Source: an uncultured Elusimicrobiaceae bacterium (GTDB lineage Bacteria; Elusimicrobiota; Elusimicrobia; Elusimicrobiales; UBA9959). Taken from it: 56,649 nucleotides of DNA. Location of the stretch: assembly GCA_964622585.1 (NCBI GenBank), contig CAZUQT010000002.1, forward strand, positions 1-56,649. The letters run 5' to 3'. Positions 25,191 through 54,277 of the stretch are shown here, one piece after another. The stretch's first letter is position 1. Each line of letters begins with the position of its first letter. A program made the position numbers and the translations under genes. Under the pieces are notes generated by a model. It did not search any database. It saw only the letters and a program-made list of their open reading frames with translations, and was not told where the DNA came from.

Positions 25191-25200
25191 GGAGAAAAAT

Positions 25201-25569: not shown

Positions 25570-25592
25570 GCGTGTTGAAAAGAGGGGGGAGT

Positions 25593-25694: not shown

Positions 25695-25710
25695 GTTTTC
25701 ACGTGGAAAC
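25695..25710. other. parS-like centromere site 2 (GTTTTCACGTGGAAAC)
   Basis: Same motif with one mismatch in the right arm. Confidence 0.6.
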
Positions 25711-25789
25711 AAAATGGCTTATATCTGCCAGCGTGCGTGTTTGCGCAGCGCGCTGCGCAGGTTGCGCTTTGTTTCTTGTTAGAGAGTAT

Positions 25790-25818
25790 TTGACTTGTTT
25801 GGATTAAAACTATAGAAT
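25790..25818 (+). promoter_or_regulatory. sigma70-type promoter of parA-parB (TTGACT-N17-TAGAAT)
   Basis: Hexamers read directly, with a 17-nt spacer. About 80-nt leader containing parS site 3. Confidence 0.5.
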
Positions 25819-25843
25819 AGTTTAGCGGTCCAAAGTAAAATAT

Positions 25844-25859
25844 GTTTTCACGTGAAAAC
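25844..25859. other. parS-like centromere site 3 (GTTTTCACGTGAAAAC)
   Basis: Identical to site 1; lies in the parA leader. Confidence 0.7.
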
Positions 25860-25902
25860 TAAAGAGACCGATCGGTATATAAAACAAAGGTTTGGAGCAT
25901 AT

Positions 25903-26745: not shown

Positions 26746-26834
26746 CCTGTCGAGGCTTCGCCTCGGCAGGAAACCTATTGAGGCTCAACCTCGATAGTAA
26801 AGTTGAATTTGTGCTTGTTATTTAAGGAGAATAT

Positions 26835-27704
26835 ATGAGAAAAGCTTTAGGACGCGGGATAGATTCGCTTATCAGCAAGGTTCAGGACAATGATATTTCC
26901 GGGGATATCGTGCAGAGGATCCCTATCGGTAAAGTGCGCCCTAACCGGCATCAGCCGCGCAGAAATTTTGACGAAAATGCCCTGGCGGAGCTGTCGGATT
27001 CAATAAAGACCAGGGGGCTTCTGCAGCCCATTTCCGTGTGGAAGGATGCGAACGAAGATTCCTACGAACTGATCGCCGGCGAGCGCCGCCTGCGCGCCGC
27101 GAAGCTGGCCGGCCTGGCCGATATCGACGCTATCGTTAAGAAAAATCTTAACGAGGAGCAGAAGCTGGGGCTAGCGCTGATGGAGAATATCCAGCGCGAG
27201 GACCTTAACGCGATCGACACGGCGCTGGCTTATAAACAGCTGATGGATAAATTCAGCGTCTCCCAGTCCGAGATCGCCAAGCAGGTGCATAAATCCCGCG
27301 GCGCGGTGTCCAACACCCTGCGCCTGCTCGAGCTCGACGAGGATATCCGCCAGGGGATACAGGCGGGGACCATCAGCGAGGGGCATGCCCGCGCGCTCAT
27401 CTCCATCCCAGATTCGGCCAAGCGCCGCGAATATTACCAGCGGATAATGACGGAGAAACTTTCCGTGCGCGACGTGGAGAGCTTCGCCCAGGGCTTCCAC
27501 GCCGACAAGCCGCGGGCGCCGAGGGCGCCCCGCGCGGGCTCGCGCCGCACGCCCGAGGTCGTGGCCCTCGAATCCTCGCTCGAGAAAACCCTGGGCACCA
27601 AGGTGGAGGTCTGCCCCGGGCCCGGCCCGGAGAATGGTAAAATAATCATACACTACTTCTCGCTGGACGATATCGAAAGAGTAACACAGATTTTAAAAAA
27701 GTAG
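26835..27704 (+). CDS. parB: chromosome partitioning protein ParB/Spo0J
   Basis: PNRHQPRR, the GERRLRAAKLAG arginine patch and an HTH (SQSEIAKQVHKSRGAVSNTLRLL). Confidence 0.95.
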   Translation: MRKALGRGIDSLISKVQDNDISGDIVQRIPIGKVRPNRHQPRRNFDENALAELSDSIKTRGLLQPISVWKDANEDSYELIAGERRLRAAKLAGLADIDAIVKKNLNEEQKLGLALMENIQREDLNAIDTALAYKQLMDKFSVSQSEIAKQVHKSRGAVSNTLRLLELDEDIRQGIQAGTISEGHARALISIPDSAKRREYYQRIMTEKLSVRDVESFAQGFHADKPRAPRAPRAGSRRTPEVVALESSLEKTLGTKVEVCPGPGPENGKIIIHYFSLDDIERVTQILKK

Positions 27705-37801: not shown

Positions 37802-38440
37802 ATGAGCAGCCTGGAGCGGCCCGTAGACGAGGCGGTTAATTTTTTAACTCACGGCATCGGGCTCGTACTGAGCCTCGCCGGGGCGGCTTTCCTTATGCGC
37901 CTGGCGGTGACGGCGCACAGCCGGCCCGTCTCCATCGCCTGCGGCGTTTATTGCCTGACGCTGGTGGCCACTTACGCCGCATCGACGCTCTCCCACGCTT
38001 TCCACGACCTGGACCGCCGCCGTTTCTTCAGGACCGTGGACCAGGCCAGCATTTTCTTTTTGATCGCCGGGTCCTTCACCCCGTTCGCCGTCGGCTACCT
38101 GAACCACGGCCGCTGGTGGCTCCTGCTGGCTTCTATGTGGATCTTCGCTTTCGCGGGGGTGGCTTTCGTCCTGTTCAGAAAAGAGATGTCCCGCACCGAC
38201 AAGATCACCTACGGCGTCCTCGGCGCTCTGTCCATGCTTTCTTTCTGGGAGCTTTACCACGTGGCCCCGCTGAACATGCTGCTCCTGATAATAGCGGGGG
38301 AGGCTTTCTACCTGGCGGGCAGCGTTTTCCTCGCGCTGGGGAAAACCACTAAACATTTCCACGCGCTCTGGCATATCTTCGTGCTCGCCGGCAGCGCCTG
38401 TCACTATGCCGGCATAGCGGCGTACGTGGCCATCCGCTAG
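37802..38440 (+). CDS. hemolysin III / PAQR family channel protein
   Basis: 7-TM protein with NFLTHGIG, STLSHAF and HALWHIFVLAGSACHY motifs. Confidence 0.88.
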   Translation: MSSLERPVDEAVNFLTHGIGLVLSLAGAAFLMRLAVTAHSRPVSIACGVYCLTLVATYAASTLSHAFHDLDRRRFFRTVDQASIFFLIAGSFTPFAVGYLNHGRWWLLLASMWIFAFAGVAFVLFRKEMSRTDKITYGVLGALSMLSFWELYHVAPLNMLLLIIAGEAFYLAGSVFLALGKTTKHFHALWHIFVLAGSACHYAGIAAYVAIR

Positions 38441-38451
38441 AACACATCTAT

Positions 38452-38485
38452 AAAAAACGGCCGCCCCGAATGGGCGGCCTTTTTT
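38452..38485. terminator. bidirectional terminator between the hemolysin-III and coiled-coil genes
   Basis: A6-GGCCGCCC-CGAAT-GGGCGGCC-T6. Confidence 0.78.
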
Positions 38486-38507
38486 ATAACTTAACAGGCG
38501 GACCGGG

Positions 38508-39545
38508 CTATTTCCTCTCCTTCTCCTGCGCCGCCAGGTCGACTTTAAGGTTCTCTTTTTCAGCCCTGGCCGCGTCCAGCTCCCTGGTCAAGCGGGCTAA
38601 CTGGCGGTTCTTATCGTCCAGTTCGAGCCGAAGTATTTCCAGCCTGCGCCGGGAGTCGGCTCTTTCCTTGTACAATTCATCAGCGAGATCTTTTCCTGAG
38701 CTCCTCAGGGCCTCGATCTCGGCTTTGCTCTCTTTCAGCGCCGAGGCCGCGGATTTAGAGAACATTTCAAGCTCTGTTATTTTTATCAGGCCGGCTTCGC
38801 GCAGCGCTTTTACCTCGGCGTTCTCGCTCCTGGATTTTTCAAGCTCCAGGTTCAGATCGGCGGCTTCATGGCGTAGATGCCGGATAGTTTCTCCAAGCGA
38901 GAGGATCTCTTTATGCGCGGCCGCCAAAGCGATTTTCGCCTCCGCGCGCTCGCTTTCCAGCAGGGCGGTCTCTTCGGCCGCCCTGGCGCGGCTCTCCCGG
39001 GCAAGGGTCTCGCTCTCCGCTTTTTGCTTTTTCGCTTCCTCTTTCGCGGAGGAGGCTAAAGCTTCCAGTTTCAGCAGGCGCGCCTCGTAATCGGCGGCAA
39101 GGGCTTCCTTCCTGTCCAGCAGCGTCTGCATCTCGGCGCCGGCGCGGGCCGCCTCGGCCGCTTTAAGCCGGAGGCCGTCCCTCATTGTTTCGAGCTCTCC
39201 AAGAAGCCTTTTTTCCGCTTCGGCGGCGCCCGCCTCCAGCTTCCCGTAATTGAGCCTGAATTCCGCGCGTTCCCGGTCCAGTTCGGCCGTGAATTCGGCG
39301 GACTTTTTCATAAGCGCGCCGGCAAGGGCCGCGTTCTCTTCCTTGTATTTCTTAAGCTCCCCGTTCAGGGAAAGGATATTCCCGGTTTTCGAGGCCAGGT
39401 CCGTTTTTAATGTTTCAAGTTCGGAGGCGTCGGCTTCCTCCTGTTCCTTCAGTTCATCCAGGACCTGGGACTCCTCTACCAGCTGCTTTTGCATCAGGTT
39501 AAGCTTTGCTAGCGCCCTGCTTAAAATATTGGTTTTTTTATCCAT
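38508..39545 (-). CDS. coiled-coil protein (345 aa, E/A/K/L-rich)
   Basis: Continuous heptad-like sequence. The overlapping plus-strand Ser-rich ORF 38470..39090 is its shadow. Confidence 0.65.
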   Translation of the reverse strand: MDKKTNILSRALAKLNLMQKQLVEESQVLDELKEQEEADASELETLKTDLASKTGNILSLNGELKKYKEENAALAGALMKKSAEFTAELDRERAEFRLNYGKLEAGAAEAEKRLLGELETMRDGLRLKAAEAARAGAEMQTLLDRKEALAADYEARLLKLEALASSAKEEAKKQKAESETLARESRARAAEETALLESERAEAKIALAAAHKEILSLGETIRHLRHEAADLNLELEKSRSENAEVKALREAGLIKITELEMFSKSAASALKESKAEIEALRSSGKDLADELYKERADSRRRLEILRLELDDKNRQLARLTRELDAARAEKENLKVDLAAQEKERK

Positions 39546-39684
39546 AAACGCATGTTGAGCGACGCTGTTGAGATCAATATTGAGGAAATAAAGGCGGATA
39601 TTCTATTTCGTTCAAGCTATATTATATCAAGTATGGACGGCCGGCATTGGCGAACCGGACTGATTATGGTGTAAACTTTCAGCT

Positions 39685-42758: not shown

Positions 42759-42908
42759 CCCTAAGGTAATAATATTATTAATGGCGGTGAAGGTAAAGAG
42801 GGGGTTGACCAGGCGCTTAAAGTTATTTAACTTGTGCTTAAAGGGGCGCTTTCATCCGCTGAAAGCGCGCAGCCCTCTTAAAATATAAGCCGCCGGCCAG
42901 GGGGAATT

Positions 42909-43703
42909 ATGAGAAAGCGTTCCTGCTTCGTGAAGAGCGTTTTTTGCGCGGCGTTCTGCGCCGCCCTGCTGGCGCCGGCGGCGCGCGGCGAGGACTGGAA
43001 ATTCAGCTCCTCTTTCAATTTCGACACTGGCAAGTACGGCGGCGGCGACCGGATAGATTCCGTCTATATTCCCTTCACCCTGAAACGCTATTACACGGAG
43101 GGAGACATCGCCGTGACCGTGCCTTACCTGCGCCAGAGCTCGACGGGGCAGGTGACCCGCGTCGGGGGCAGCCCTATGCGCGCGGTCAGGGGTGGCGGCG
43201 GCGTCCTGACCTCCTCCGAGTCCGGCCCCGGGGACATCCTGGTGAGGGGAACCTATATCGTGCAGAACGAGGGGCCGCGCTCCTGCGACCTCTCGCTGGC
43301 GGGAACGCTGAAGCTGCCGACCGCGAACAAGAACAAAGGGCTCGGCACCGGGGAGCTGGACGAGGGGGTCGGGGTAGAGTTCGCGAAAAAAGTGTCGCCC
43401 GGCTGGACGGTGCTGGCCGACGGGTATTACACCATAATCGGAGATACCTCCGGGATCGACTTTAACAACCAGCTCTCTTTCGACGCGGGCTTTTCCCGCC
43501 GGCTGCGGGAGGACCTCTGGCTGACCGCGCTTTACGCTACGCGCAGCGCACTGCTGGACGGGAACGCCGACCCGAGGGAGCTAAGCGGCACGCTGGACTA
43601 CCGGGCCGCGGACGGGAAACATTATTTCTGCGGCCTGCTTTTAGGGCTTTCCGACGGCAGCCCGGAGACGGGGTTCAGCGCCGGGTTCAGCCTGAAGTTT
43701 TAG
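42909..43703 (+). CDS. outer-membrane beta-barrel protein (MetA-pathway/transporter-like family)
   Basis: Signal peptide, alternating beta-strand pattern, GPGDILVRGTY and GTGELDEGVG segments, C-terminal ...FSLKF. Confidence 0.7.
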   Translation: MRKRSCFVKSVFCAAFCAALLAPAARGEDWKFSSSFNFDTGKYGGGDRIDSVYIPFTLKRYYTEGDIAVTVPYLRQSSTGQVTRVGGSPMRAVRGGGGVLTSSESGPGDILVRGTYIVQNEGPRSCDLSLAGTLKLPTANKNKGLGTGELDEGVGVEFAKKVSPGWTVLADGYYTIIGDTSGIDFNNQLSFDAGFSRRLREDLWLTALYATRSALLDGNADPRELSGTLDYRAADGKHYFCGLLLGLSDGSPETGFSAGFSLKF

Positions 43704-43728
43704 CGACTGAAAAAATAAAGGGGGGAAA

Positions 43729-44286
43729 ATGAAGAACAAAGAAATGCGGCTGCTGGCGGCGGGGCTTTTCCTTTGCGCGGTCATGCCGGTGCTGGCGCAG
43801 GAAAAATCGTCCGAAGATAAGAAACTGGAAAAAGCCTCGGTCGAACTTGACAACGAGGCCGGAAAGCCTGAAGGCGGAAAAACGGTGACGGACAAGCTGA
43901 AAGCGGAGTTCGGCGTGGACGAAGCGCGGATACAGGGCCTGCGCGACCAGAAACTGGGCTACGGGGAAGTCTCCACCGCTCTGTCGCTGGCCCAGGGCCT
44001 GCCGGGCGGCATCACCGACGCCAACGTGCAGAAAGTGATGGCGCTGCGCCAGGGACCCCCGGTCATGGGCTGGGGAAAAGTGGCTAAAGAGCTGGGGATG
44101 AACCTGGGCTCCGTTACGAGCAAGGTAAAAAAAGTCTCGGCCGAAGCCCGCAAACAGGGCAAAGCCGACAAGATGAAGAAAGTAGAAAAAGGCGAGAGAC
44201 CGGGAAAGCCCGAACGCCATGAAAAACCGGAAAAAATGAACCGGCCCGAAAAAGGCGGGCGCCCCGAAGGCGCGGGGAAGCATTAA
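43729..44286 (+). CDS. secreted Lys/Glu-rich hypothetical protein
   Basis: GGGGGGAAA SD sequence, signal peptide and a KPEK-type repeat tail. Followed by a strong terminator. Confidence 0.6.
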   Translation: MKNKEMRLLAAGLFLCAVMPVLAQEKSSEDKKLEKASVELDNEAGKPEGGKTVTDKLKAEFGVDEARIQGLRDQKLGYGEVSTALSLAQGLPGGITDANVQKVMALRQGPPVMGWGKVAKELGMNLGSVTSKVKKVSAEARKQGKADKMKKVEKGERPGKPERHEKPEKMNRPEKGGRPEGAGKH

Positions 44287-44302
44287 AAGAACCGGCAAGA
44301 GA

Positions 44303-44330
44303 GGCGCGGCCGGGTGGCCGCGCCCTTTTT
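44303..44330 (+). terminator. rho-independent terminator
   Basis: GGCGCGGCC-GGGT-GGCCGCGCC followed by CTTTTT. Confidence 0.78.
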
Positions 44331-44367
44331 CCGGCCGCCGGACCCGGGATAACCGGGGGATAGCGGT

Positions 44368-44661
44368 TTATTTTTTGAAATAATGCTTAAGGGTGAGCAG
44401 CGGGTGGCGCAGCGGCATGCGGGGGCCGGCGTATTTCATGACTTCACGCATGAGCTCGCGCTTCGCCGGAAGATAGCAGTGCGTGGGGCAGTTCTTGCAG
44501 GCTGGCTTCGGGTGATGGGGGCATTTCGCTAGCCTGACCTCCGCGTAGGAAAGGAGTTCCGCGCAGCCGGCGCAAAGGGTTTTCCCGCCGTGCTTTCCGC
44601 GGCAGTAAATAGCCAGCATCAGCCCGATGGTTCGTAATTCCGCTTCAAGGTCTTTTCCCAC
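44368..44661 (-). CDS. nitrous-oxide-stimulated promoter (YgbA_NO) family Cys-rich protein
   Basis: CRGKHGG..LCAGC...CPHHPKPACKNCPTHCY cysteine pattern. GTG start. Confidence 0.75.
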   Translation of the reverse strand: MGKDLEAELRTIGLMLAIYCRGKHGGKTLCAGCAELLSYAEVRLAKCPHHPKPACKNCPTHCYLPAKRELMREVMKYAGPRMPLRHPLLTLKHYFKK

Positions 44662-44695: not shown

Positions 44696-44731
44696 TTGAC
44701 TCGGCGGGCGGCATATCCTAGAATCTAGCTA
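44696..44731 (+). promoter_or_regulatory. promoter/operator cassette copy A: TTGACT-N17-TAGAAT-N6-ATG (PilZ), with the embedded palindrome CTAGAATCTAG at 44718-44728
   Basis: Read directly. 25 of 26 nt (CATATCCTAGAATCTAGCTATGGA region) are shared with copy C. Confidence 0.6.
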
Positions 44732-45051
44732 TGGAAGGAAAAGATAAAAGACAGGCTGAAAGGAACAACCACGATTCGGTCATAGAGCTCTTCGACGAGA
44801 AGGGAAAATTCTTCGCTTCCGGCAGGCTGGCCGATTTTTCCGACCTTGGCGCTTCTTTTTCTATCGCCGAGCCGGTAGTGCTGCCGGCAAAGTTCCGCGC
44901 GCGCCTCAGGCTGCTGAGCAAGGGCGTGCTCGAGGCCGAAGCCCAGGTGGTCAGGACCCGCAAAGAAAAGAACACCACCCACTACGCCGTAAAATTTAAC
45001 GGCGTTAAAAGGGTCCATCCCACCGGCGAGCTCAAAGACACCTGGCAGTAA
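44731..45051 (+). CDS. PilZ domain protein (putative c-di-GMP receptor)
   Basis: 106 aa with a basic N-terminal stretch (KRQAERNNHD) and a DxSxxG-type motif (DFSDLGASF). Confidence 0.7.
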   Translation: MEGKDKRQAERNNHDSVIELFDEKGKFFASGRLADFSDLGASFSIAEPVVLPAKFRARLRLLSKGVLEAEAQVVRTRKEKNTTHYAVKFNGVKRVHPTGELKDTWQ

Positions 45052-45091: not shown

Positions 45092-46141
45092 ATGCCGAAA
45101 CAAAGCCTTAAAAAACAACTTTTTATTTACGCGCCGATAGCTCTCTCGCTCGGTATACTCGCCGTTTTGGTCTATCCCAATCTGGAAGCGCTGCTTGCCG
45201 CCGTAAAGACCGCAAAACCTTTCTACCTGTTCTGCTCCCTCTTCTTTTCCTTCGCCGGCTATCTGTTCATGGGCCTGGCCCTCTGGGAAGTTCTCAAGAT
45301 CCTCGGCCACCGCCTGCCTTTCTGGGAGGCTTCGGGCATCGTTTTCGTTTCCACCACGGTGAACTATTTCGTCTCCTCGGCCGGGGTGAGCGGTTTCGCC
45401 ACCAGGGCGCATTTGCTGAGCAAGCGCAATGTCCCCTACGGGATAAGCGTGACCTCCTCGGTGGTCATCAGCGTCTTCATCTACCTGGTTCTGGCCGCGA
45501 TAATACTTGAAGGGATGCTGCTGCAGATGCTCCTTTCCAGCAGCTACGGGATAAACGTTTTCGAGGGCGTAGCCGGCGTCCTTTTCGTTCTCACTTTCGC
45601 TTTCGTTCTGGTCATGCTCTTCTTCAGTCATGAACTCAGGACGGCCTGGGCCCGGAGGCTTTACCACCTGGTGAACCACCTGATGTACTTCTTCTCTAAG
45701 AAAACGATACCCGAGGAGACCTTTCTGCAGTTTGAAACCCAGCTGGCCGGCGGGATACATACGATACAGGCCCGGAGGTACGAGCTGCCGCTGGTCCTGG
45801 GCTATATCTGCCTGGACTGGGTGAGCAATATCCTCATCCTCCATTACGCTTTCAGGTCCGTGGACGCGCATATGCACACGAGCACGCTTATCATAGGCTT
45901 CGCTTTGGGCCAGCTAATGACGATAATCCCGATCCTGCCCGGCGGCCTGGGCGCGATGGAGGCCGCGATGACCGCGGCTTTCTCCGGCATGGGCATCCCG
46001 GTCGGGAAGGCACTCGCGGCGAGCCTTATCTTCAGGCTTTTCTATTACATTATCCCGGCCCTGGCCAGCGTCTTCGTCTACTGGTACCTGCGCGTCTCCG
46101 AACCGCGTTATGCCAGGCGCAAAGAAGATCCCCTCCCTTAG
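45092..46141 (+). CDS. flippase-like / lysylphosphatidylglycerol-synthase-TM (UPF0104) family membrane protein
   Basis: About 8 TM helices with the C-terminal IPILPGGLGAMEAAM motif typical of this family. Confidence 0.78.
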   Translation: MPKQSLKKQLFIYAPIALSLGILAVLVYPNLEALLAAVKTAKPFYLFCSLFFSFAGYLFMGLALWEVLKILGHRLPFWEASGIVFVSTTVNYFVSSAGVSGFATRAHLLSKRNVPYGISVTSSVVISVFIYLVLAAIILEGMLLQMLLSSSYGINVFEGVAGVLFVLTFAFVLVMLFFSHELRTAWARRLYHLVNHLMYFFSKKTIPEETFLQFETQLAGGIHTIQARRYELPLVLGYICLDWVSNILILHYAFRSVDAHMHTSTLIIGFALGQLMTIIPILPGGLGAMEAAMTAAFSGMGIPVGKALAASLIFRLFYYIIPALASVFVYWYLRVSEPRYARRKEDPLP

Positions 46142-46162
46142 AAGCCTTTTCCGCCTCCTCCT

Positions 46163-46255
46163 CCCTTTACTGCTGACCAGGCATATCCTAGAATCTGGCT
46201 ATGGACAAAGGTATCTCGGCCCGGGAGATACCGCTCAAGGGAGTGGCCCTCCTCG
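46163..46255 (+). repeat. left direct repeat bracketing the accessory block
   Basis: By eye about 80% identical to 53391-53457 plus 53519-53546. Confidence 0.65.
46166..46201 (+). promoter_or_regulatory. promoter/operator cassette copy B: TTTACT-N17-TAGAAT-N6-ATG (relic micro-ORF)
   Basis: Same geometry. The palindrome is degenerate (CTAGAATCTGG, 46188-46198). Confidence 0.5.
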
Positions 46256-46263
46256 GTAAATAA
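46201..46263 (+). pseudogene. 20-codon relic of the 5' end of the nucleotidyltransferase gene found intact at 53429
   Basis: MDKGISAREIPLKGVALLGK* aligns with MDKAIAAREI[20 aa]IPLKGAALLELG of 53429..54277 (61-nt internal deletion). It is preceded by the same promoter cassette. Confidence 0.6.
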
Positions 46264-46353
46264 AGAGTGCTGCGCCCGGCTGTTGCGGGCGTGTCACACG
46301 GAGGGGCTTTGCTTGCCTGGATGCCGACAGTGGTGGGATCAATGGCGGTTTGT

Positions 46354-47250
46354 TCAGTCCCTGGGAAGGGCCTTAAATATGCTGGTATCAATGTAATAGA
46401 TGGCCGAGTCTTGCCTGCTTTCCTCATCAGTAGTGCTATATACGCAGGCCAGTCGCACTGCTTTTTCCAGGTGTTGGCGGTATAGATCCAGGTTGGCTTT
46501 CGTCATACGGACGGTCATCCTCTTGGCAGCAACGGGTTTGGAACCTGCCAACCACGTCTTCCAGAGATCGCGTAATGTGTCCCGGATCCCCGTCGTCTCC
46601 GGTATCATCGGCATTTTACTAATCACTTTGCCCGCAAACTGGCTGCGTGCCTTGTCCCCTGAAAGATCGATCAAACCCCCGGAAGCCAGTGCTTTGAGCG
46701 CTTTCCTTATTGCCTCAGGTTTAAACCTGGTCGCATTCGACAATTCCCGGACCGTGACCCAGCCCGCCGTGTTGGCCAGGAAGTTCTGACAGATGTGCGT
46801 CACCAGATCTCTGGAGCGCAATTTCCATTGCGCCATTGTCATGTTGATGCTGCGTTGCGAGAGCGCCTGATGGGTAGCCGCTTCAGCCAGTTCTCTGCTG
46901 GGAAGATCCGCATCGGCAGAGGCCGGCGCTGACAGGGTCTGAAGCAGTTCATCTGAGCCTGAGAGCGCCCTGAAATAGGCCCGGACAAGTTCCTGCGCCT
47001 TCGGTGAATGCTTTTCAATGCCCAGCGCGGCAATGATCGCCTTAAGACGCCAACTCTTCGGCAATTTCTTGCCGCGCTCCATATCATAGTAACTCACGAA
47101 GGCAAGCCCCAGGCTTTTGCTCCCGCCGATACTCTTGAAGAATTGGTACGCACCGGAGTAACCCTGCTCTTTCCTGATCCTGGCTAAGGTGCTGCCGAAT
47201 GTTTTGGCGTTAGTCATATTCCGAAAAGTATAACATATCGGTTTAGCCAT
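46354..47250 (-). CDS. XRE-type HTH transcriptional regulator with a ~200-aa C-terminal domain containing a second winged-helix-like segment
   Basis: FGSTLARIRKEQGYSGAYQFFKSIGGSKS...SYYDMERGKKLP is an XRE HTH. The later VTVRELSNATRFKPEAIRKALKALASGGLI looks winged-helix-like. The ATG lies in the centre of a 19-bp palindrome. Confidence 0.7.
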   Translation of the reverse strand: MAKPICYTFRNMTNAKTFGSTLARIRKEQGYSGAYQFFKSIGGSKSLGLAFVSYYDMERGKKLPKSWRLKAIIAALGIEKHSPKAQELVRAYFRALSGSDELLQTLSAPASADADLPSRELAEAATHQALSQRSINMTMAQWKLRSRDLVTHICQNFLANTAGWVTVRELSNATRFKPEAIRKALKALASGGLIDLSGDKARSQFAGKVISKMPMIPETTGIRDTLRDLWKTWLAGSKPVAAKRMTVRMTKANLDLYRQHLEKAVRLACVYSTTDEESRQDSAIYYIDTSIFKALPRD

Positions 47251-47259
47251 AGGCTAAAC
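47241..47259. promoter_or_regulatory. 19-bp perfect palindrome GTTTAGCC-ATA-GGCTAAAC (candidate operator) spanning the XRE gene start codon
   Basis: The arms are exact reverse complements. The CAT of the minus-strand start is at 47248-47250. Confidence 0.55.
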
Positions 47260-47428
47260 TAAAGGCTTTTATATTTAGTCGCCGCTCCTGAATCAAAAGA
47301 CCGGGCCGCTCTGGTTCTTCCGCCTCATGGAATTCATCGGCAGACAGAGTAAACTTATCTCATGAGGTTTTGGAGCAGCACGGTAGCTACATCCGGCACC
47401 AATCAAATAGGGAGAATAATTAAGTATG
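47241..47428 (+). repeat. duplicated regulatory leader, copy 1 (upstream of the FGE-fold gene)
   Basis: By eye roughly three-quarters identical to 48853..49040, with no net indel. Confidence 0.75.
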
Positions 47429-48319
47429 AAAAGATTAGCCTACGCAACAGTAGTAGTATTATTCGGTCTTAACGTTTCATATGCCACGGAGACCGCTCTT
47501 GATTCATTAAGAGCCTCTGTTTCTCCCCCGGTTTTAGGCGGAACAGTTCTGCCGGATATTTCCAAGGGTTACGTCTTAGAGGACGATCTGTCTGCCGGCG
47601 CTCCGGCCACACCGCTAGAATGGATTGCCATCGGCGGGGGGGCTTTAACGATGGGAACCGATGATGACTCCGGTATTTTTGACGATGCCAGGCCGATCCA
47701 TAAAGTAGCCATTAAAACCTTTGAGATGTCCAAGACAGCGGTGACGGTGGAGCAATACGCGGAGTGCGTGATAAAAGGCAAGTGCACGGAGCCAGGCGAC
47801 GTCAAGTATTGCAACTGGGGGAAGGAGGGGCGGCAGCTTCACCCGGTTAACTGCGTGGACTGGGAGCAGGCGAACCAATACGCCAGGTTTAAGGGCGCAA
47901 GACTGCCCAGCGAGTCCGAGTGGGAATACGCGGCGAAAAGCGGCGGCAAGAATCAGAAATATCCATGGGGCAACGAGGAAGCGACCTGTGACAGGGCTGT
48001 AATGCACGGTAATGACGGTGACGGTTGCGGCGCTTATGGCACGATGCCAGTATGTTCAAAACCGGCTGGGAACACCGCGCAGGGTTTGTGCGATATGTCC
48101 GGAAACGTATGGCAGTGGGTCCAGGACAATTACCAGGATTCGTATAACGGCGCGCCTGCGGACGGCAGCGCGTTCAAAAACACGAGCTCCGACCGGGTGC
48201 TGCGCGGCGGCTCCTTCTTCAACAGCGGTGTCAGATACCTGCGGGCCGATTACCGCAACGAGTTCGGTTTTGGCGACCGTTATTCTGAGATCGGGTTCCG
48301 CCTTGCGAGGTCCCGTTAA
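47426..48319 (+). CDS. secreted FGE-sulfatase (SUMF1) fold protein lacking the catalytic cysteines
   Basis: Signal peptide, HKVAIKTFEMSKTAVTVEQY, PVNCVDWEQANQYARFKGARLPSESEWEYAA, GNVWQWVQD, RVLRGGSF...IGFRLARS. There is no Cys in the RGGSFFNSGVRYLRADYR segment, where true FGEs carry two. Confidence 0.88.
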   Translation: MKRLAYATVVVLFGLNVSYATETALDSLRASVSPPVLGGTVLPDISKGYVLEDDLSAGAPATPLEWIAIGGGALTMGTDDDSGIFDDARPIHKVAIKTFEMSKTAVTVEQYAECVIKGKCTEPGDVKYCNWGKEGRQLHPVNCVDWEQANQYARFKGARLPSESEWEYAAKSGGKNQKYPWGNEEATCDRAVMHGNDGDGCGAYGTMPVCSKPAGNTAQGLCDMSGNVWQWVQDNYQDSYNGAPADGSAFKNTSSDRVLRGGSFFNSGVRYLRADYRNEFGFGDRYSEIGFRLARSR

Positions 48320-48421
48320 TGCATGGAGGCTGAAGCCACCGTCAGTTTACGGGTATCCCGTAACGGCAGAGGCGGACCCTGTAAGCGAGTCTCCGGCATA
48401 GACGCGGGTTCTGCGGGTCGT

Positions 48422-48805
48422 TTGAGATCTCATAAGAAAACAGGGGGCATTATAAAAATACTGCTGGTCGAAGATAATGAACTGACGCGGCACGTTCTAA
48501 AGTCCATGCTGATAAAGCTCGGGCATGAAATCGTGGGCGAAGCCGGGGATGGAGATAAAGCGGTCCGGTATTTTACCCGGTCAAAGCCGGACGTGGTTTT
48601 CCTGGACCTTCTCCTGCCCGGAAAATCCGGCATAGAAGTATTGGCGGCCATCCGGCACGTGGATCCAGCAACGCGGGTAGTGATCATAACGGCTGTTGAG
48701 CAGGAAGAGATAAACCGCCAACTTTCTGGCAAGGGCATTCACGCCGTATTGCGCAAACCTTTTTCCTTTGGGGATTTTAAGACACTGATGAGGAATTTGA
48801 CCTGA
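48422..48805 (+). CDS. single-domain response regulator (CheY-like receiver)
   Basis: ILLVEDNE acidic pocket, VVFLDLLLPG phospho-acceptor Asp, IITAV, LRKPF. The start is uncertain: the ORF track begins at 48323, but the receiver fold only starts at about 48455, and 48347-48363 is a perfect hairpin. Confidence 0.75.
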   Translation: MRSHKKTGGIIKILLVEDNELTRHVLKSMLIKLGHEIVGEAGDGDKAVRYFTRSKPDVVFLDLLLPGKSGIEVLAAIRHVDPATRVVIITAVEQEEINRQLSGKGIHAVLRKPFSFGDFKTLMRNLT

Positions 48806-48852
48806 AGCGCCTGTCCGGCACGGGAACAGCGAGGGAAAAACATAATACATCA

Positions 48853-48871
48853 GTTTAGCTATTGGCTAAAC
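48853..48871. promoter_or_regulatory. second copy of the operator-like palindrome (GTTTAGCT-ATT-GGCTAAAC)
   Basis: 7 of 8 arm positions pair. It sits exactly 185 nt before the protease ATG, as copy 1 sits 185 nt before the FGE-fold ATG. Confidence 0.5.
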
Positions 48872-49040
48872 TTAACGAGTTTTTATTTAGCCGCTGCTCC
48901 TGAATCAAAAGACCGGAGCGTTCTGGTTCTTCAGCCTCAGGGAGCTCAGCGGTAAACGAGGTAAACTTAAATCATGAGGTTTCGGAACTGCGTGATAAGC
49001 CGCATCCGGGCCCATAAGTAGGAGAGGTAAACATAATATG
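48853..49040 (+). repeat. duplicated regulatory leader, copy 2 (upstream of the S1 protease gene)
   Basis: See copy 1. Confidence 0.75.
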
Positions 49041-50257
49041 AAAAACCAAATATTCGCGCTATTAAGCCTGGTTATCGCCGCCGGCGCCGGCCCGGCCCAG
49101 GCCGGCGACCCGGTCACGGACCTGCGCGGCAATTGCGGAGATTTTACCCGCGTTTCCACGTATGGCGACGACAACCGGGAAGAATACTGCTCCCGGAACA
49201 TACTACTGCGCGACCTGGCCGATTCTACAGCCGGCCTGTTCACCGACGGCAGCAGCGTTACCCTGAACAATAAGGATTATGTTTTTGACACCGAGACGCT
49301 CGGAGCAAGCCAAGCCTTGGCTCCGGACCAGCGGTTCGCCGACCAGCCGGTGGCGGCTTTCTGCACCGGCTTCCTTGTGGGCGAGGACCTGCTGGTTACC
49401 GCCGGCCATTGCGTTAAAGACCAGCACCCAGGCACCGCCGCTCCCAAGGACCACCCCGGGGCCTGCCTGGAAAACCTCCAATCGGGGGTAGTCTGCGGGA
49501 ACATAAGGGTGGTTTTCGGCTTCAGAAAGGACCTGGGAGGTGTTATCCCCGGGTCAGTACCCGCCGGCAATGTCTACAAGTGCATCGGGGTGGTGGCGCA
49601 CAGCCGTAAAAGCGGCCCCGACTATGCCCTGGTGAGGCTGGACCGGAAGGTTTCCGGCCCGCGCCCGCTGGCTATAAACAGGAACAACTCCGGTCTTTCG
49701 CAAAAAACTCCCTTGTTAGTCATAGGGCACCCGACTGGAATACCCCTTAAAATCGCCGGCGACGCGACGGTCATTTCCTCCGGCACGGACGTCTATGTCA
49801 ATTATCCGGGGGCAGTGAAAAATGGGTAGACAAGGGGTATGCCTTCCTAACTAACCTGGACACCTTCCAGGGCAATTCCGGCAGCCCCGTGTTCAACCTT
49901 AACACGCTGCTGGTTGAAGGCATACTTGTGAGCGGGGACAACGACTACGAGCCCCACCCCGAATATCCCGGCCAGGCTCAGGTCACGAATTACCCCCAGG
50001 CTACCAGCGCGGATCTAGGCAAAGGGGTAGGCGAAGTCTGCACCAAGATCTCGGTGCCTGCGGCCAAGATCCCTGTTACCGACCGCGAGGCGGCCATGCT
50101 GGAAATGAACAGAAAGGCCAAGAACAGGCTTTATCCTGTTATGCTGGAGAGGCTGTACCGGAGGGCCGGTGAGCAACTGCGGCTGCAGCCGCAGGCTATA
50201 CCAATACCGGACTATATAGTCCCGGCCAAACCCAAACCGGACGTGCAGTGGATATAA
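49038..50257 (+). pseudogene. secreted trypsin-like (S1 family) serine protease interrupted by a 1-nt frameshift
   Basis: His in LLVTAGHCV and Asp in DYALVRLD (ORF 49038..49829). The Ser motif DTFQGNSGSPVF lies in the -1 frame upstream of ORF 49889..50257. The frames join at the G5 run 49808-49812. Confidence 0.8.
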
Positions 50258-50325
50258 GGCCGTCCTTTGCTTAACCCCGCCTGCCCGGTGAACGAACAGT
50301 TTTGGCGGAAGTTTAAGGATAAATT

Positions 50326-51075
50326 ATGAAAATTATAATACCGATCTTTATGTTAATTGCTCCGTTTTTGTCGAACTGCATGGTTATCGCGGCCGAGGCC
50401 CCGTCTACCGCAAGTTTCACGGACCTGGAGAATTCTCTGCCGGGAAACTTCGGTACGAACGCTTCCGGCCCGGGAATTCCGGAGTGCGCAAAGCCTGCAG
50501 CTGTTAAAGCGGTTTCGGAAAGCGATAACCGCCGGCTTACGGAAGGCGAACGTGAGATGCTTGAAAAGATCTTCGTAAATGGCGTGAGATATGACGAGGT
50601 TCGTGTATACCACCGCAAATGGACGCTTTTTCAGCCGGAGACCAGAGTAATGTCCCCTGACGGTAACATTTATTACCCGCCTGCTGACCTCAAGGACCCC
50701 TCGGGGAATCTATATTATTCAGAGGATTTCAGCAAAACCGTCGGTTTGGTAAAGCTTGTCTTCATCCATGAAATGGGGCATGTCTATCAATATCATCAGG
50801 GCATAGACGTTATGTCTAGAAGGCTTGGGGAGGGCGGGGTCTATAGGTATAAAATAGAAGCCAACAAGGACCTGAACGACTACACGCTGGAACAGCAAGC
50901 CGAGATAATTAAAGATTATTATCTCTGTCTGGCTGAAAGGAATCTGCTTGAAAGAAGTTGGAACAATGCGCATTGCGTAATTAAATTTACACCGGCGCTC
51001 GATAATTTTGACGAAAATCCGGATTATCTCAGGAAAGCCGAACTAAAGCGCCGGCGCCAGGTGAACCCGTTCTGA
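50326..51075 (+). CDS. secreted HExxH zinc-metallopeptidase-like protein
   Basis: Signal peptide and an FIHEMGHVYQYHQG (HExxH) motif at 50767-50781. From memory, the surrounding pattern (LTEGEREMLEKIF...YDEVRVY...MSPDGNIYYP...EQQAEIIKDYY) resembles small proteins often annotated 'Vgr-related'. Confidence 0.65.
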   Translation: MKIIIPIFMLIAPFLSNCMVIAAEAPSTASFTDLENSLPGNFGTNASGPGIPECAKPAAVKAVSESDNRRLTEGEREMLEKIFVNGVRYDEVRVYHRKWTLFQPETRVMSPDGNIYYPPADLKDPSGNLYYSEDFSKTVGLVKLVFIHEMGHVYQYHQGIDVMSRRLGEGGVYRYKIEANKDLNDYTLEQQAEIIKDYYLCLAERNLLERSWNNAHCVIKFTPALDNFDENPDYLRKAELKRRRQVNPF

Positions 51076-51130
51076 TTTTAACGGATAAGGAATAGCTGTG
51101 GGTAATTTGGGAGAAAAGGGGGATATCTAT

Positions 51131-52339
51131 ATGAACAAGACATTGAGCGGAACATTTATCTCGGCAGCTATTTTATGTGCGCTTCAGCTCCCGGCTGCTG
51201 CTAGTCCCGGCACGCGGGATAAATTCAAGGGCAGAGCCAATGGTACCGAGTTTATCGCCGATTGTGAGAGATATCCCACTCTTAAAGTGTCCCGTTATGG
51301 ATTCGAGTGTGAAATGACTTATCTTGTTAAGCCGTACGGCGCGGATAAACAAATGGAAATCAAGAAGCTTGTTTTTTTCCCTTCTACTGGCCTGGAGAAA
51401 AGATACGCAGACTCCTCCAGCAAAAAGGACAGGGATGCTTTCGAAGCGGATCGCTTGAAACGGATCCAGAAAGTGGTGGCCGTTGACATTAACTACCAAA
51501 GAGATGTTGTCTCTAAAAAAAGCATTTACGATCCTCCAGAACACAAGAGGAAGATTGCCTTGGACCCAGGGCTTGAATCCGTGGATGTTTTAGCCAAAGC
51601 CGACGCCAGGGCCAAGGCCATGGTTAAAGAAAATAACAGTCCGGAAAACAGGAAAACGGCCGAAAGCGTTAAATTCTATCTCGAGAAAGCACGAAAAAGG
51701 GAGAAGGAGAATAGTAAGGCCGCCTGCATTGCTTTCTATACGGCTTATACGGTCGCGGAATCCGCTTACGTTTCCGTGGATGCGGACGCATATTGGGAGG
51801 AAAGAAAAAACGTACTGCATGCCGCTAACGAGATCATGGGGCTTGTTCCATTGCTTGGTCTCCCCGCTGCTGCTAATACTTGCAAAAACGCCCATTCGTT
51901 CGTGAATTATATCTGCTGCGGGTTTGGTATTGCCGGGAACCTTCCAATGCTCAAAGGAGCTAAACTAGTTGAGGAAATTCATGGTGAAGCCATCTGCGCC
52001 GGGTCTGCGGTTCTTGGGGGTTTTAACGCGAGGGCTAACCGTGAAGAAAAGAAGACCCGGTTTGTCCAAGAGGCCGCGAATGCGCTTAATCAGGTGAACG
52101 TGTGCGTTAAAAAAAAGGTTTCGTCTTTTGAGGAGATCCGGAGTGCTGGTGAGGCAAACCTTCGAAAAAGGACGGGCGGTTCCCCGCAGGAGCCCTGCGA
52201 TGAGCGTGTTCCCTATCCGTTTCGGGCGATCAAATGCGAGGGCTCCAAGTGCGAAGCCCTGTGGAGCTGCGGTCCGGAAAATATTAACAGAAGCTATCGT
52301 ACCTTCAATGCTGACGTAAACTCACTGCGAAAAAGATGA
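51131..52339 (+). CDS. secreted Cys-rich hypothetical protein
   Basis: AAGGGGG SD sequence before the ATG at 51131. Signal peptide MNKTLSGTFISAAILCALQLPAAASP and many Cys residues (CERYP, CEMTY, NTCKN, ICCG, CEGSKCEALWSC). No family recognised. Confidence 0.6.
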   Translation: MNKTLSGTFISAAILCALQLPAAASPGTRDKFKGRANGTEFIADCERYPTLKVSRYGFECEMTYLVKPYGADKQMEIKKLVFFPSTGLEKRYADSSSKKDRDAFEADRLKRIQKVVAVDINYQRDVVSKKSIYDPPEHKRKIALDPGLESVDVLAKADARAKAMVKENNSPENRKTAESVKFYLEKARKREKENSKAACIAFYTAYTVAESAYVSVDADAYWEERKNVLHAANEIMGLVPLLGLPAAANTCKNAHSFVNYICCGFGIAGNLPMLKGAKLVEEIHGEAICAGSAVLGGFNARANREEKKTRFVQEAANALNQVNVCVKKKVSSFEEIRSAGEANLRKRTGGSPQEPCDERVPYPFRAIKCEGSKCEALWSCGPENINRSYRTFNADVNSLRKR

Positions 52340-52440
52340 AGAGAGGGTCCCCTGGCCGGAGTAAGTCTTTAAAAAAGTTACTGCCCCCGCGGCAGGCCGC
52401 CTGAACGCGTACAAGCTTTCTATTGGATGCTTATGGGAGC

Positions 52441-53322
52441 TTACTTGGGAGCGCTGAGTCTTTTCTGGATCTCCAGGCGGAGTTCCAGGATGACGTTCAC
52501 GTAGTTTTTGGAATGATTGTAGCCGTACAGGGCTTTCCAGGGGCCGGAGTTTTCGGCGAAGCCGGGGGAGGAGAAATAATCGTGCTTGACCAGGTAGTTG
52601 GAGATGCTGGCCAGCGCGTCCGGCCAGATAAAGAGGTCGGGGTAGGCGTCGCCGTCGAAATCGGCGGCGTAAGCGTTATAGGAGGACGGCATGAACTGGC
52701 CCAGCCCGAAAGCGCCCGCATAGGAGCCGAGCAGGGCGAACGGGTCTTTCTTCCTGGCATAGGAAAGCTTTAAGAGTTCCGCGATCTCTTTGGACGCCCA
52801 GGCCGAGCGCCGGGGGATCCTTTCGGCGATGGTGTTCAAGGCGTTGAAAACGATATATTTGCCGCGGTTCTCGCCATAGTTGCTCTCCACTCCGACGAGC
52901 CCGGCAAGAAGGAAAGTGTCTACGCCGTACTTCTGATTAACGGCCGCCAGAATATCCTTGTTAGCGGCATAGAACTGCGCCCCGCCGGCTATCCTTTTCT
53001 CGGTCAGGAGGAGCTTCCTGTATTGCTCGTAGGTCAGGCTCTCGGCCGGTTTGTTCATCGCCGTCACTATCTCTTCATGGATCTTCACGCGCGGGTCCGC
53101 GAAAGCCGCTTTCGCATAGCTTTCCGGCACGCCCGAACCTTTGAGCGCGGCGAGAACGGCCTGGTAAACGTCGGCGGGGACGGCCTGGGCTTTATCAGCG
53201 GAAACCTGGGACCTGTCGAAGGAGGAAAAAATGTCTCCCGCCGTCAATTCTTCCGCCCTGGCGGCGGAAGCGGCGGCCGCCAGAAGGATAAGCGGCAGAA
53301 ATGTTTTAAATATGATCTTCAC
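52441..53322 (-). CDS. mltB: lytic murein transglycosylase (MltB/SLT_2 type)
   Basis: Signal peptide, GLVGVESNYG catalytic Glu context, AGAFGLGQFMPSSY and GYNHSKNYV. Confidence 0.82.
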   Translation of the reverse strand: MKIIFKTFLPLILLAAAASAARAEELTAGDIFSSFDRSQVSADKAQAVPADVYQAVLAALKGSGVPESYAKAAFADPRVKIHEEIVTAMNKPAESLTYEQYRKLLLTEKRIAGGAQFYAANKDILAAVNQKYGVDTFLLAGLVGVESNYGENRGKYIVFNALNTIAERIPRRSAWASKEIAELLKLSYARKKDPFALLGSYAGAFGLGQFMPSSYNAYAADFDGDAYPDLFIWPDALASISNYLVKHDYFSSPGFAENSGPWKALYGYNHSKNYVNVILELRLEIQKRLSAPK

Positions 53323-53390
53323 ATCTATAGTGTAGCCCGCGGACGCAAGTTCCCCAAGGGCCGAAAGTCCTACTTCCTCTTTGCCAACCG

Positions 53391-53546
53391 CCCTTTACTG
53401 CACACCTGCCATATCCTAGAATCTAGTTATGGACAAAGCGATCGCGGCAAGGGAGATCCTGCTTCTTGGGGCTTTCGACGAGGCCAGGGCTGTCGCGCTT
53501 AAAGCCGGCATCGAGATAATACCGCTGAAAGGCGCCGCCCTCCTCG
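53391..53546 (+). repeat. right direct repeat (intact promoter and 5' end of the nucleotidyltransferase gene)
   Basis: See the left repeat. It contains 61 nt (53458-53518) that are missing from the left copy. Confidence 0.65.
53394..53429 (+). promoter_or_regulatory. promoter/operator cassette copy C: TTTACT-N17-TAGAAT-N6-ATG (nucleotidyltransferase), palindrome CTAGAATCTAG at 53416-53426
   Basis: Read directly. Confidence 0.6.
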
Positions 53547-54277
53547 AGCTCGGCATCTACAAGGTCGGCGAACGCGGGATGAGCGACGCCGACGTCCTGT
53601 TGCGTCCGAAGGACCTTCCGCGCTTCGAAAAGATACTCCACGGGCTCCGCTACCAGCCGATGCCGAACAGCGCCGACGGCTGGCTGCGGCCGAGCCGGAA
53701 CGACGCGCCGCCGGCCATTCTCGACCTGCATACCGGCCTTTGGCACATAAAGCGCACCGAGGAACTCTTTAACTGGGGCCTCGAACCGGGTCCCGGCGGG
53801 CTCGCTCTGAACCTGGCCGACCTCTTCCTGCACGCCGCCGCCCACCCGCTTCTGCACCACGGGGAGGTTACGCCCCGCTCCCTGGAAGACTGCGCCCGCA
53901 TCGCCCTGCACGCGCCCGGGGACGGAGAGAAATTCTGGGCCGCCGTGGCCCGCAAAACTGAAATTTATAATATGCGCCCGGTGATCTGGCCGGTCATAGA
54001 GAGGCTGGCCGCCGGCCCGTTGGCGATCCCGGAGGCTGAACTGCGGGCCCTGGAGCCGCGCGGCCTGGAAAAAATAAAAGCGGCTTTCTTCGAGAAAGCC
54101 GCCAAAAAACATTCTACCTTGCTGGAATATCTGCTGCCGGTGCTGCACCGCCCCGGCTTCCTGCTGAAATACGCCGTCCCCGAAAAACATTTCATGCTGC
54201 GCCGCTACGGCGCCGCAAGCCTGGCCCTCTACCTTCTGCGCCCGCTAAAGCTGCTCCGCTCCGCCCTGAGGCGCTAG
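53429..54277 (+). CDS. uncharacterised nucleotidyltransferase family (NTP_transf_5-like) protein
   Basis: IPLKGAALLELGIYKVGERGMSDADVLLRPKDLPRF matches the family's N-terminal pattern (LKG..L......R...D.D.L). No SD sequence; the start lies 6 nt after TAGAAT. Confidence 0.7.
   Translation: MDKAIAAREILLLGAFDEARAVALKAGIEIIPLKGAALLELGIYKVGERGMSDADVLLRPKDLPRFEKILHGLRYQPMPNSADGWLRPSRNDAPPAILDLHTGLWHIKRTEELFNWGLEPGPGGLALNLADLFLHAAAHPLLHHGEVTPRSLEDCARIALHAPGDGEKFWAAVARKTEIYNMRPVIWPVIERLAAGPLAIPEAELRALEPRGLEKIKAAFFEKAAKKHSTLLEYLLPVLHRPGFLLKYAVPEKHFMLRRYGAASLALYLLRPLKLLRSALRR

Follow-up and report, generated by a model that had tools for sequence, protein, structure and literature searches.

Plasticity hotspots are sites between core genes at which islands are exchanged by homologous recombination of the flanks. 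Here we describe such a site in an uncultured Elusimicrobiaceae bacterium, within a stretch of 56,649 nt (assembly GCA_964622585.1, contig CAZUQT010000002.1; the whole stretch is called the window in the following, and positions refer to its forward strand). Between a flippase-like gene and a gene for an MltB-type lytic transglycosylase the window carries an island of about 6 kb, and close to it there are two direct copies of the promoter and 5' end of a nucleotidyltransferase (NTP_transf_5) gene. As in described hotspots, the core flanks are common to relatives, the content differs between strains, the composition is deviant, and no integrase, transposase, tRNA or terminal repeats were found; the present cargo may have followed the same recombination route. 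The locus differs from such hotspots in that it adds local copy-and-paste of a leaderless promoter/start-codon module, with microhomology at the junctions.

It is likely, in our judgement, that the locus consists of an ordinary strain-variable hotspot island plus a separate scar of illegitimate recombination, and that the repeat is this scar, located near the island, and not the island boundary. An earlier reading made from the letters alone (the sequence-only reading) had taken 46163-53546 for one accessory block without mobility genes, flanked by the duplicated gene end as a footprint of insertion or segmental rearrangement. The accessory block proved to be real, strain-specific and compositionally foreign. 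The footprint interpretation had to be given up, as MltB is present in the empty site and a relic of core DNA splits the left copy from the island.

The flippase-MltB interval in the window and in relatives

Relatives were found by scanning one genome per species with the flippase-like protein, which gave 28 Elusimicrobia loci. The comparison mainly involves L001 (metagenome-assembled genome STB_10, JAQTOU010000005, 93% identical to the window), L002 (SKS1.bin115, about 90% identical to the window) and L033, a lone metagenome contig about 80% identical to the window and the sole contig returned by a promoter-core pattern scan of metagenomes. L039, L040 and L041 are metagenome contigs with orthologues of the nucleotidyltransferase gene. 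The island and its immediate flanks are as follows.

45092..46141, plus strand: flippase-like (LPG_synthase_TM) gene, left core flank; colinearity ends at 46114 with L001 and at about 46149 with L002
46277..52440, no strand assigned: strain-specific island proper, about 6.1 kb, right end within 52340-52440, G+C content 0.529
52441..53322, minus strand: gene for an MltB-type lytic transglycosylase, a core gene outside the island

L001 is colinear with the window at 92-95% identity with one main exception, the replacement of 46115-52440 by 443 nt, and its PilZ, flippase, MltB, NTP_transf_5, response regulator and HD proteins are 95-99% identical at the amino-acid level. The flippase gene is thus followed by MltB with 443 nt in place of the island, the kind of empty site for which the sequence-only reading had suggested to search. 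L002 remains colinear up to about 46149, 8 nt past the flippase stop codon, and then continues into unrelated DNA (at least 2.6 kb, G+C content 0.44) encoding small exported proteins and a beta-propeller protein. The order in L033 is PilZ, about 200 nt with a gene relic, MltB and the nucleotidyltransferase gene, with neither a flippase gene nor an island. Since the MltB and nucleotidyltransferase genes are present in island-less relatives they belong to the core, and only 46.1-52.4 kb is strain-specific. In L001 and L033 MltB has its place in the core without any island, in agreement with the earlier impression that this gene looks host-like and that the true insert is shorter than the repeat-bounded interval. 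The content of the site differs in each relative: 6.3 kb in the window, 443 nt resembling a repetitive extragenic palindrome (REP) in L001, at least 2.6 kb of unrelated genes in L002, and the relic only in L033. Judged from these arrangements, the PilZ/flippase-MltB intergenic region is a long-standing plasticity hotspot in this Elusimicrobiales lineage.

Several repeat elements were noted around the site. The filler of L001 contains a repeat similar to REP elements or miniature inverted-repeat transposable elements (MITEs), GACTGGGCATCNCGCGG ... CACGGTGTGGCCGAACGCGTTTT, at L001 11085-11465, which also occurs in opposite orientation in L033 (about 1420-1510). Repeats of the same type are located at L039 1-160, L040 1-30, L004 11379 and L019 5806, and in other metagenomes they are seen ahead of the nucleotidyltransferase gene where contigs end; the window has none. 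L033 has an inserted near-perfect palindrome of about 100 nt, ggggacgctgattcctaattcctaatt...aattaggaattaggaatcagcgtcccc (358-461), immediately ahead of its nucleotidyltransferase gene. Searched with Rfam, neither the window region nor the filler of L001 nor L033 gave anything above threshold, and matches of miRNA type in L033 were dismissed as spurious products of the long palindrome. The independent contigs L039, L040 and L041 each have less than 200 nt (their first 70-200 nt) ahead of the nucleotidyltransferase gene before they break off, which is consistent with strain heterogeneity or repeats at the site in many populations.

Regarding composition, the island has a G+C content of 0.529 versus 0.595-0.60 in the flanks, with the lowest values (0.48-0.49) in its genes for an HExxH metallopeptidase and a Cys-rich protein. 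The tetranucleotide distance is 1.8-2.6 standard deviations above the window mean in every 3-kb window between 45 and 53 kb (island z about 2.4), so that the AT-richness read by eye for 46.3-52.4 kb is borne out. The only other compositionally deviant stretch is 24000-27000 (G+C content 0.47-0.50, tetranucleotide z 2.2), which encodes a DUF2089 zinc-ribbon/helix-turn-helix (HTH) protein, a SHOCT-like protein and a ParA/MinD-type ATPase and may be another acquired segment.

The absence of mobility features, already remarked on in the sequence-only reading, was confirmed by dedicated searches. When all island proteins and those of neighbouring genes were scanned with Pfam, NCBIfam and PADLOC, no recombinase was found. 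Pfam and NCBIfam showed no transposase or other mobility domain among the island proteins, ARAGORN no tRNA in the window, and the repeat finder no terminal inverted repeats with arms at the island ends. On reading the ends, no target-site duplication was seen at 46277 or about 52440. Direct repeats of att type likewise do not mark the ends of the island (46277-~52440), the two copies being located at 46160-46255 and 53388-53546. Homology of the island ends to the spacers of L001 or L033 was no better than that of shuffled sequences, so that the right boundary is only bracketed to 52340-52440. Plasmid and phage collections contained no match to the island, and PADLOC assigned no defence-system membership, with just generic matches to the receiver.

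Two alternative accounts of the island itself were weighed on these data. The first is a chimeric assembly in which the island was mis-joined via the repeated promoter sequence, and short repeats together with strain heterogeneity indeed break assemblies here, as the contig ends of L039-L041 illustrate. However, independent Logan contigs (runs SRR13723394 and SRR13723396) span both junctions: contigs from the two runs connect the flippase gene via the left copy with the regulator and FGE genes (99.9% identity), and another one, which starts at 49808, extends over the protease, HExxH and Cys-rich genes as far as MltB (100% identity). The repeats, just 82% identical, are moreover too diverged to mislead an assembler, and we regard a chimera, which the sequence-only reading had wished to see excluded, as extremely improbable.

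The second account takes the island as ancestral: L001 would have deleted it, L002 would have exchanged it for other DNA, and L033 would have lost it along with the flippase gene. The site is deletion-prone, as seen from the clipped flippase tail in L001, the gene relics and a frameshift in the S1 protease gene of the island. Yet the G+C content and tetranucleotide usage deviate from those of the host, the nearest homologue of the island's regulator is 74% identical whereas host orthologues are 95-99% identical to L001, and three independent losses would have to be assumed versus one gain; this history is therefore quite unlikely. For the hotspot island we propose, as one of two separate events, that a cassette of about 6.1 kb (46277-~52440) was acquired at the site. 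Because the cassette carries no mobility machinery of its own, we infer that it would have been taken up from a different Elusimicrobia genome and incorporated through recombination of the core DNA on either side.

The duplicated promoter and its junctions

The elements needed to follow the repeat are listed here from left to right.

44696..44735, plus strand: leaderless promoter of a gene with a detected PilZ domain, TTGACT-N17-TAGAAT-N6-ATG; probably the original copy of the promoter core
46150..46245, plus strand: left copy, a degenerate duplicate covering the promoter and initial codons of the nucleotidyltransferase gene, from which 63 nt are deleted internally and in frame
46201..46263, plus strand: remnant open reading frame (ORF) of 20 codons, MDKGISAREIPLKGVALLGK followed by a stop
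46246..46276, plus strand: core relic tail GCCCTCCTCGGTAAATAAAGAGTGCTGCGCC, 31 nt, the 3' end of an older decayed gene that ends in ...AIHWSDCALLGK and a stop in L033
53388..53546, plus strand: right (source) copy, comprising the promoter and the initial 39 codons of NTP_transf_5 (intact gene, 53429..54277), with GCCCTCCTCG at 53537-53546

Local alignment and a repeat finder pair 46160-46235 with 53388-53463 (62 of 76 positions identical, 82%) and 46228-46255 with 53519-53546 (23 of 28). The diverged duplicate of the gene's 5' end thus exists as the sequence-only reading had stated, and TTTACT-N17-TAGAAT-N6-ATG is indeed present in both copies alike. The formal alignment is significant as well: in pairwise blastn against the 56.6-kb window the relatives' copy of the first segment matches 46160-46236 with E values of 5e-15 to 3e-14. 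The left copy was not found in L001, L002 or L033, and the right copy lies about 950 bp past the right end of the island. Some details of the left copy had to be revised. The stop after 20 codons stands, while the internal deletion comprises 63 nt (21 codons, in frame) instead of 61 nt and lies between GAGAT at 53453-57 and GAGATAAT at 53513-20. Likewise the bulk of the left ORF, given as MDKGISAREI-PLKGVALL, is of nucleotidyltransferase origin, whereas its end, ALLGK and the stop, derives from the older gene relic. The family N-terminus MDKAIAAREILLLGA...IPLKGAALL is nearly invariant over 99 protein clusters of NTP_transf_5. Because Gly4, Ser6 and Val15 of the left copy occur in 0 of these 99 clusters, the copy is decaying and not a functional variant; no functional paralogue with its N-terminus was found among them.

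What follows PilZ in L033 is a spacer that represents the 3' end of an older, decayed gene, ...FYFPDSYIDPAFNQLKFAQAIHWSDCALLGK and a stop, for which Pfam gave no match. L001 retains a decayed 45-nt piece, in which a TGG is mutated to TAG, and the window retains just the last 31 nt (46246-46276), placed between the left copy (46150-46245) and the island (from 46277). This tail is 30/31 identical (97%) to L033 with an alignment score of 57 versus a shuffle maximum of 23; for L001 the score is 32 versus a shuffle maximum of 27. As the relic tail sits between left copy and island, the two represent separate departures from the ancestral state. A derivation of the relic from the 3' end of a clostripain (C11) gene was considered on the basis of a weak tblastn match to the C-terminus of the C11 protein of L043 (E 0.1, database of about 0.8 Mb) and a motif seen by eye; it was rejected as an assignment and kept as a lead only.

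Taking 46163-53546 as one insertion marked by the duplicated gene 5' end, either through Campbell-type integration, with a single crossover by a circle that carried a piece of the gene, or through an integrase element that replaced the 5' end, would account for a real direct repeat whose orientation is right and whose left copy is truncated while the right one is intact, and its core of 15-17 perfectly conserved nucleotides, CATATCCTAGAATCT, might be mistaken for an att core. Nevertheless MltB lies between the copies and is present in the island-less L001 and L033, the conserved core relic parts the left copy from the island, the supposed core also occurs upstream of PilZ, including in island-less relatives, and no recombinase was found; single insertion of the whole interval is accordingly very improbable. 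A different origin of the left copy would be a full-length second NTP_transf_5 paralogue after the flippase gene, reduced to a remnant by deletion between two GCCCTCCTCG sites, one within the paralogue and one at the end of the neighbouring gene. Such a microhomology-bounded deletion yields exactly the observed junction, and the 18% divergence suits an older paralogue better than a recent copy. On the other hand, none of the relatives examined has a second paralogue at the site, L001 and L033 hold more of the relic body at this position, so that the relic-only state looks ancestral, and the family N-terminus is highly conserved whereas the substitutions of the left copy are found in functional homologues of 0/99 clusters. 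We consider the paralogue remnant unlikely.

For the preferred reading, a copied patch, the junctions are informative. The 10-nt sequence GCCCTCCTCG is present at 46246-46255, the start of the relic tail, at 53537-53546 and in the L033 relic, and with one mismatch in L001, and the similarity between the repeat copies ends exactly there. The location of the 3' junction inside this microhomology indicates illegitimate, templated recombination. Two features are shared with microhomology-mediated illegitimate recombination as otherwise known (templated patch insertion, slipped-strand deletion), namely a 3' junction within 10 nt common to donor and recipient and the in-frame loss of 63 nt between GAGAT repeats; the left copy differs in its 5' junction, where the microhomology comprises just about 4 nt. 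This junction reads GCCTTT followed by TCCGCC and is common with L002 up to GCCTTT. As the other event we envisage that about 160 nt of the nucleotidyltransferase gene (~53377-53546), with its leaderless promoter and 5' end, served as template for a patch that was pasted just after the flippase stop codon and joined to the older relic at GCCCTCCTCG. The patch would afterwards have lost the 63 nt between the GAGAT repeats and drifted to 82% identity. The sequence is compatible with pasting and with a duplication that was followed by deletion.

A third copy of the 26-nt promoter core GGCATATCCTAGAATCTAGCTATGGA, missed in the sequence-only reading, is located at 44710-44735 ahead of the PilZ-domain gene (24-25 of 26 positions identical). 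The core contains the near-palindrome CTAGAATCTAG, which overlaps the -10 box. At PilZ it is kept in L001 (9619-9644) and in L033 (about 2030-2055, minus strand), and L001 carries it upstream of both the PilZ and the nucleotidyltransferase gene, with no third copy. The PilZ-type promoter on the nucleotidyltransferase gene is restricted to the window and L001, a distribution suggestive of a promoter that was replaced through local copying; other promoters are found in L033, L039/L040 and L041. L033 and L039 have GTATATTAGTT between the conserved upstream DNA and ATGGA, and L041 represents a third type. The simplest reading would be that the promoter core was copied at an earlier stage from PilZ to the nucleotidyltransferase gene, ATGGA being common to both start regions, and that later the promoter together with the 5' end was copied to the position after the flippase gene. 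Selection on the left-copy promoter was considered because its hexamers are intact (0 of 12 mismatches), but at 18% divergence this has a chance p of about 0.09, and we make no such claim.

Several points weigh against the reading of an acquired island with a separately copied patch. A REP/MITE-like element occupies the empty site of L001, so that no pristine site was seen; no donor genome with the exact cassette was found, and for the direction, gain versus loss, the evidence is composition and the outgroup L033. The 5' junction shows only a weak microhomology (about 4 nt, CTTT). The left copy differs from its source at 19 of 104 positions (18%), which is somewhat above what would be expected for copying after the split from L001, given a four-fold-site divergence of 0.13 between window and L001; the confidence interval of 19/104 is wide. 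The patch may have been templated from, or imported with, a diverged allele, and the observed divergence fails to separate this from copying in situ. Finally, expression of the cassette and neutralisation of its metallopeptidase by the Cys-rich protein, discussed below, are hypothetical.

Regulator, control module and cargo of the cassette

The closest described counterparts of the cassette's regulator are XRE/C proteins and MarR-type regulators, and that of its metallopeptidase with the putative immunity partner is the pair of VgrG2b and the immunity protein PA0261 in Pseudomonas aeruginosa. The genes and control regions of the island are listed below.

46354..47250, minus strand: Elusimicrobia-specific regulator, with a predicted HTH of XRE type at the N-terminus and a predicted winged helix of MarR/LexA type in the middle
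47223..47379, plus strand: copy 1 of the control module, ahead of the FGE gene; it overlaps the regulator promoter
47426..48319, plus strand: exported FGE-sulfatase-domain protein, 55% identical to the FGE proteins of L034 and L042
48323..48805, plus strand: single-domain response-regulator receiver with an N-terminal extension of about 40 amino acids
48835..48991, plus strand: control module copy 2, 80% identical to copy 1 (157-nt repeat), upstream of the protease operon
49038..50257, plus strand: trypsin-like (S1) protease gene, frameshifted between 49772 and 49835
50326..51075, plus strand: exported HExxH metallopeptidase of 249 amino acids, motif HEMGHVYQ
51098..52339, plus strand: Cys-rich signal-peptide ORFan, candidate immunity partner

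The regulator matched no Pfam or NCBIfam family above threshold, the Pfam matches to HTH_31 and HTH_3 being weak (E 0.12-0.14, below the gathering score). Its homologues form 119 clusters, for which every source name given is Elusimicrobia, with the nearest at 74% identity. Translation probably starts at Met12 (47217) on a leaderless message, as homologues have 286 amino acids. An AlphaFold2 model built with 50 homologues has a mean predicted local distance difference test score of 79.8, and in Foldseek its N-terminal domain matches C.BclI, C.AhdI, ClgR and an XRE protein (probability 1.0, template modelling score of about 0.7 on the target, E about 0.01), while the central domain gives winged-helix matches of MarR/LexA type. 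With XRE/C proteins and MarR-type regulators it has in common the modelled N-terminal HTH fold and a perfect 8+3+8 palindrome overlapping its own promoter. It differs from them in combining two DNA-binding folds in about 286 amino acids, in being found in Elusimicrobia only, and in the accompanying control module of about 170 nt, which has several more conserved boxes.

This control module, with three boxes besides its palindrome and TAAACT, is conserved across the regulator-associated cassettes (window, L034, L035, L037, L042, L043 and L044) in 1-3 copies each, and the regulators of these cassettes are just 48-74% identical. In the orientation of the downstream gene it shows the palindrome GTT(A/T)AGCC-N3-GGCT(A/T)AAC, followed by CTCCTGGGTCAAA and then CTGGTTCTTCGGCCTCA; further on there is an invariant TAAACT resembling a -10 box and a leader of 60-90 nt with a GGAG ribosome-binding site. 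Copy 1 of the window contains the palindrome as GTTTAGCC-ATA-GGCTAAAC, then CTCCTGAATCAAA, CTGGTTCTTC and TAAACT. Beside the regulator gene, the palindrome and the -35 region of that gene's own leaderless promoter overlap each other. We infer that the 19-bp palindrome is the operator of the regulator and the module the promoter unit of each effector operon. Candidate sequences for contact with the regulator would be GTTTAGCCATAGGCTAAAC and the boxes CTCCTGGGTCAAA and CTGGTTCTTC. RNAalifold detected no consensus structure in the leaders downstream of the module, which is why it is treated as a DNA-level control region and not as an RNA element.

Each member of this phylum-specific cassette family would have a dual-HTH regulator and, in divergent orientation, operons for signal-peptide enzymes or toxins that each follow a control module. 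In the present cassette, operon 1 would comprise the FGE protein and the receiver, and operon 2 the frameshifted protease, the metallopeptidase and the Cys-rich ORFan. In six other cassettes the regulator likewise adjoins exported hydrolases or toxins with signal peptides; the contents of four of them are given here.

L034: FGE domain, alpha/beta hydrolases, trypsin
L037: phosphatases similar to protein tyrosine phosphatases (PTP), papain-like C1 protease
L042: ADP-ribosyl exotoxin, FGE domain, Peptidase_MA_2, clostripain C11
L043: polysaccharide deacetylase, single-domain receiver, two trypsins, C11, YkuD, ADP-ribosyltransferase (ART) toxin

The S1 protease named in the sequence-only reading was correctly identified, and its gene proved to be frameshifted, which had gone unnoticed. 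The part with the catalytic His and Asp lies in the first frame and the GNSGSP serine motif in the frame of 49889..50257; either the gene is a pseudogene or the frameshift is a sequencing error, and the Logan contig covering this side begins only at 49808. The protein is about 30% identical to the trypsin-like proteins of L034 and L043. Many cassette proteins of L034, L035 and L037 share a motif after the signal peptide, A(A/E)(D/E)F..L(A/S)V(S/K)A.DLK, which may be a common sorting signal or pro-peptide and is weaker in the window proteins encoded from 47426, 49038 and 50326.

The genes for the HExxH protein and the ORFan have no counterpart in the other cassettes. Residues 67-202 of the metallopeptidase match the C-terminal domain of P. 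aeruginosa VgrG2b (PDB 6H56; phmmer, E 4.7e-16), with HEMGHVYQ aligned to HEMTHVWQ. This domain of VgrG2b is a metallopeptidase toxic in the periplasm, where it is neutralised by the signal-peptide immunity protein PA0261, whose family is periplasmic, poorly conserved and dependent on disulfide-bond (Dsb) formation (PMC6899460). The cassette resembles this Tpe-Tpi pair in the homologous HExxH domain with its HE(M)xHVxQ motif and in the gene for a Cys-rich signal-peptide protein directly 3' of the metallopeptidase gene. It differs in that the toxin domain stands alone with its own predicted Sec signal peptide, with no fusion to a VgrG spike as used in delivery by a type VI secretion system, and in that the downstream protein has no detectable homologue: a word-indexed search and exhaustive HMMER searches of 5.8 billion clustered proteins and 1.84 billion representatives returned only the ORFan itself, and matches to the PDB were at chance level. 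By analogy, the ORFan may plausibly be the immunity protein of the metallopeptidase.

A wider interpretation, which we offer tentatively and hold to be possible at best, is that these cassettes constitute an undescribed, Elusimicrobia-specific plug-and-play effector system. It would combine the dual-HTH regulator with a portable module that is duplicated in front of recruited genes for exported toxins and hydrolases, among them ADP-ribosyltransferases, C1, C11 and S1 proteases, PTP-like phosphatases, cell-wall enzymes and the VgrG2b-like metallopeptidase. The cassettes would move into hotspots, and the promoter-plus-ATG unit would spread locally, by copying templated through microhomology, from PilZ to the nucleotidyltransferase gene and on to the left copy, which may still fire convergently into the regulator gene of the island.

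Surrounding variation and implications

Further variable segments lie outside the island. About 1.2 kb of the window (38438-39684), with an ORF for a coiled-coil protein of 345 amino acids (38508..39545, minus strand) and no informative domain, is absent from L001, and about 1.6 kb (42797-44372, with the ORFs 42909..43703 and 43729..44286) is missing from L002. An ORF of 185 amino acids in the latter segment is just 69% identical to L001 as compared to 95-97% for its neighbours, and marks a second fast-evolving spot beside the hotspot. Four-fold-site divergence between window and L001 varies by gene, from 0.03 for the response regulator and 0.06 for PilZ to 0.16-0.19 for MltB and the nucleotidyltransferase gene; these swings suggest mosaic homologous recombination among strains around the hotspot. 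Many ORFs of the window start 6-7 nt after a TATAAT-like box (TAnAAT) with no space for a Shine-Dalgarno leader, for example at 6541, 9564, 10115, 22542 and 23550 on the plus strand and at 41430, 44661 and 55965 on the minus strand, and leaderless mRNAs seem to be common in this Elusimicrobiales genome.

If the conspicuous direct repeat is, as is likely, a scar and not an insertion footprint, no new integration mechanism is required for the island. The locus would instead be a clean natural case, from a little-studied phylum, in which microhomology-templated copying has duplicated a leaderless promoter with its start codon. The Elusimicrobia-wide cassette family with its repeated control region would give a handle for predicting the secreted arsenal and the regulon of uncultivated Elusimicrobia.

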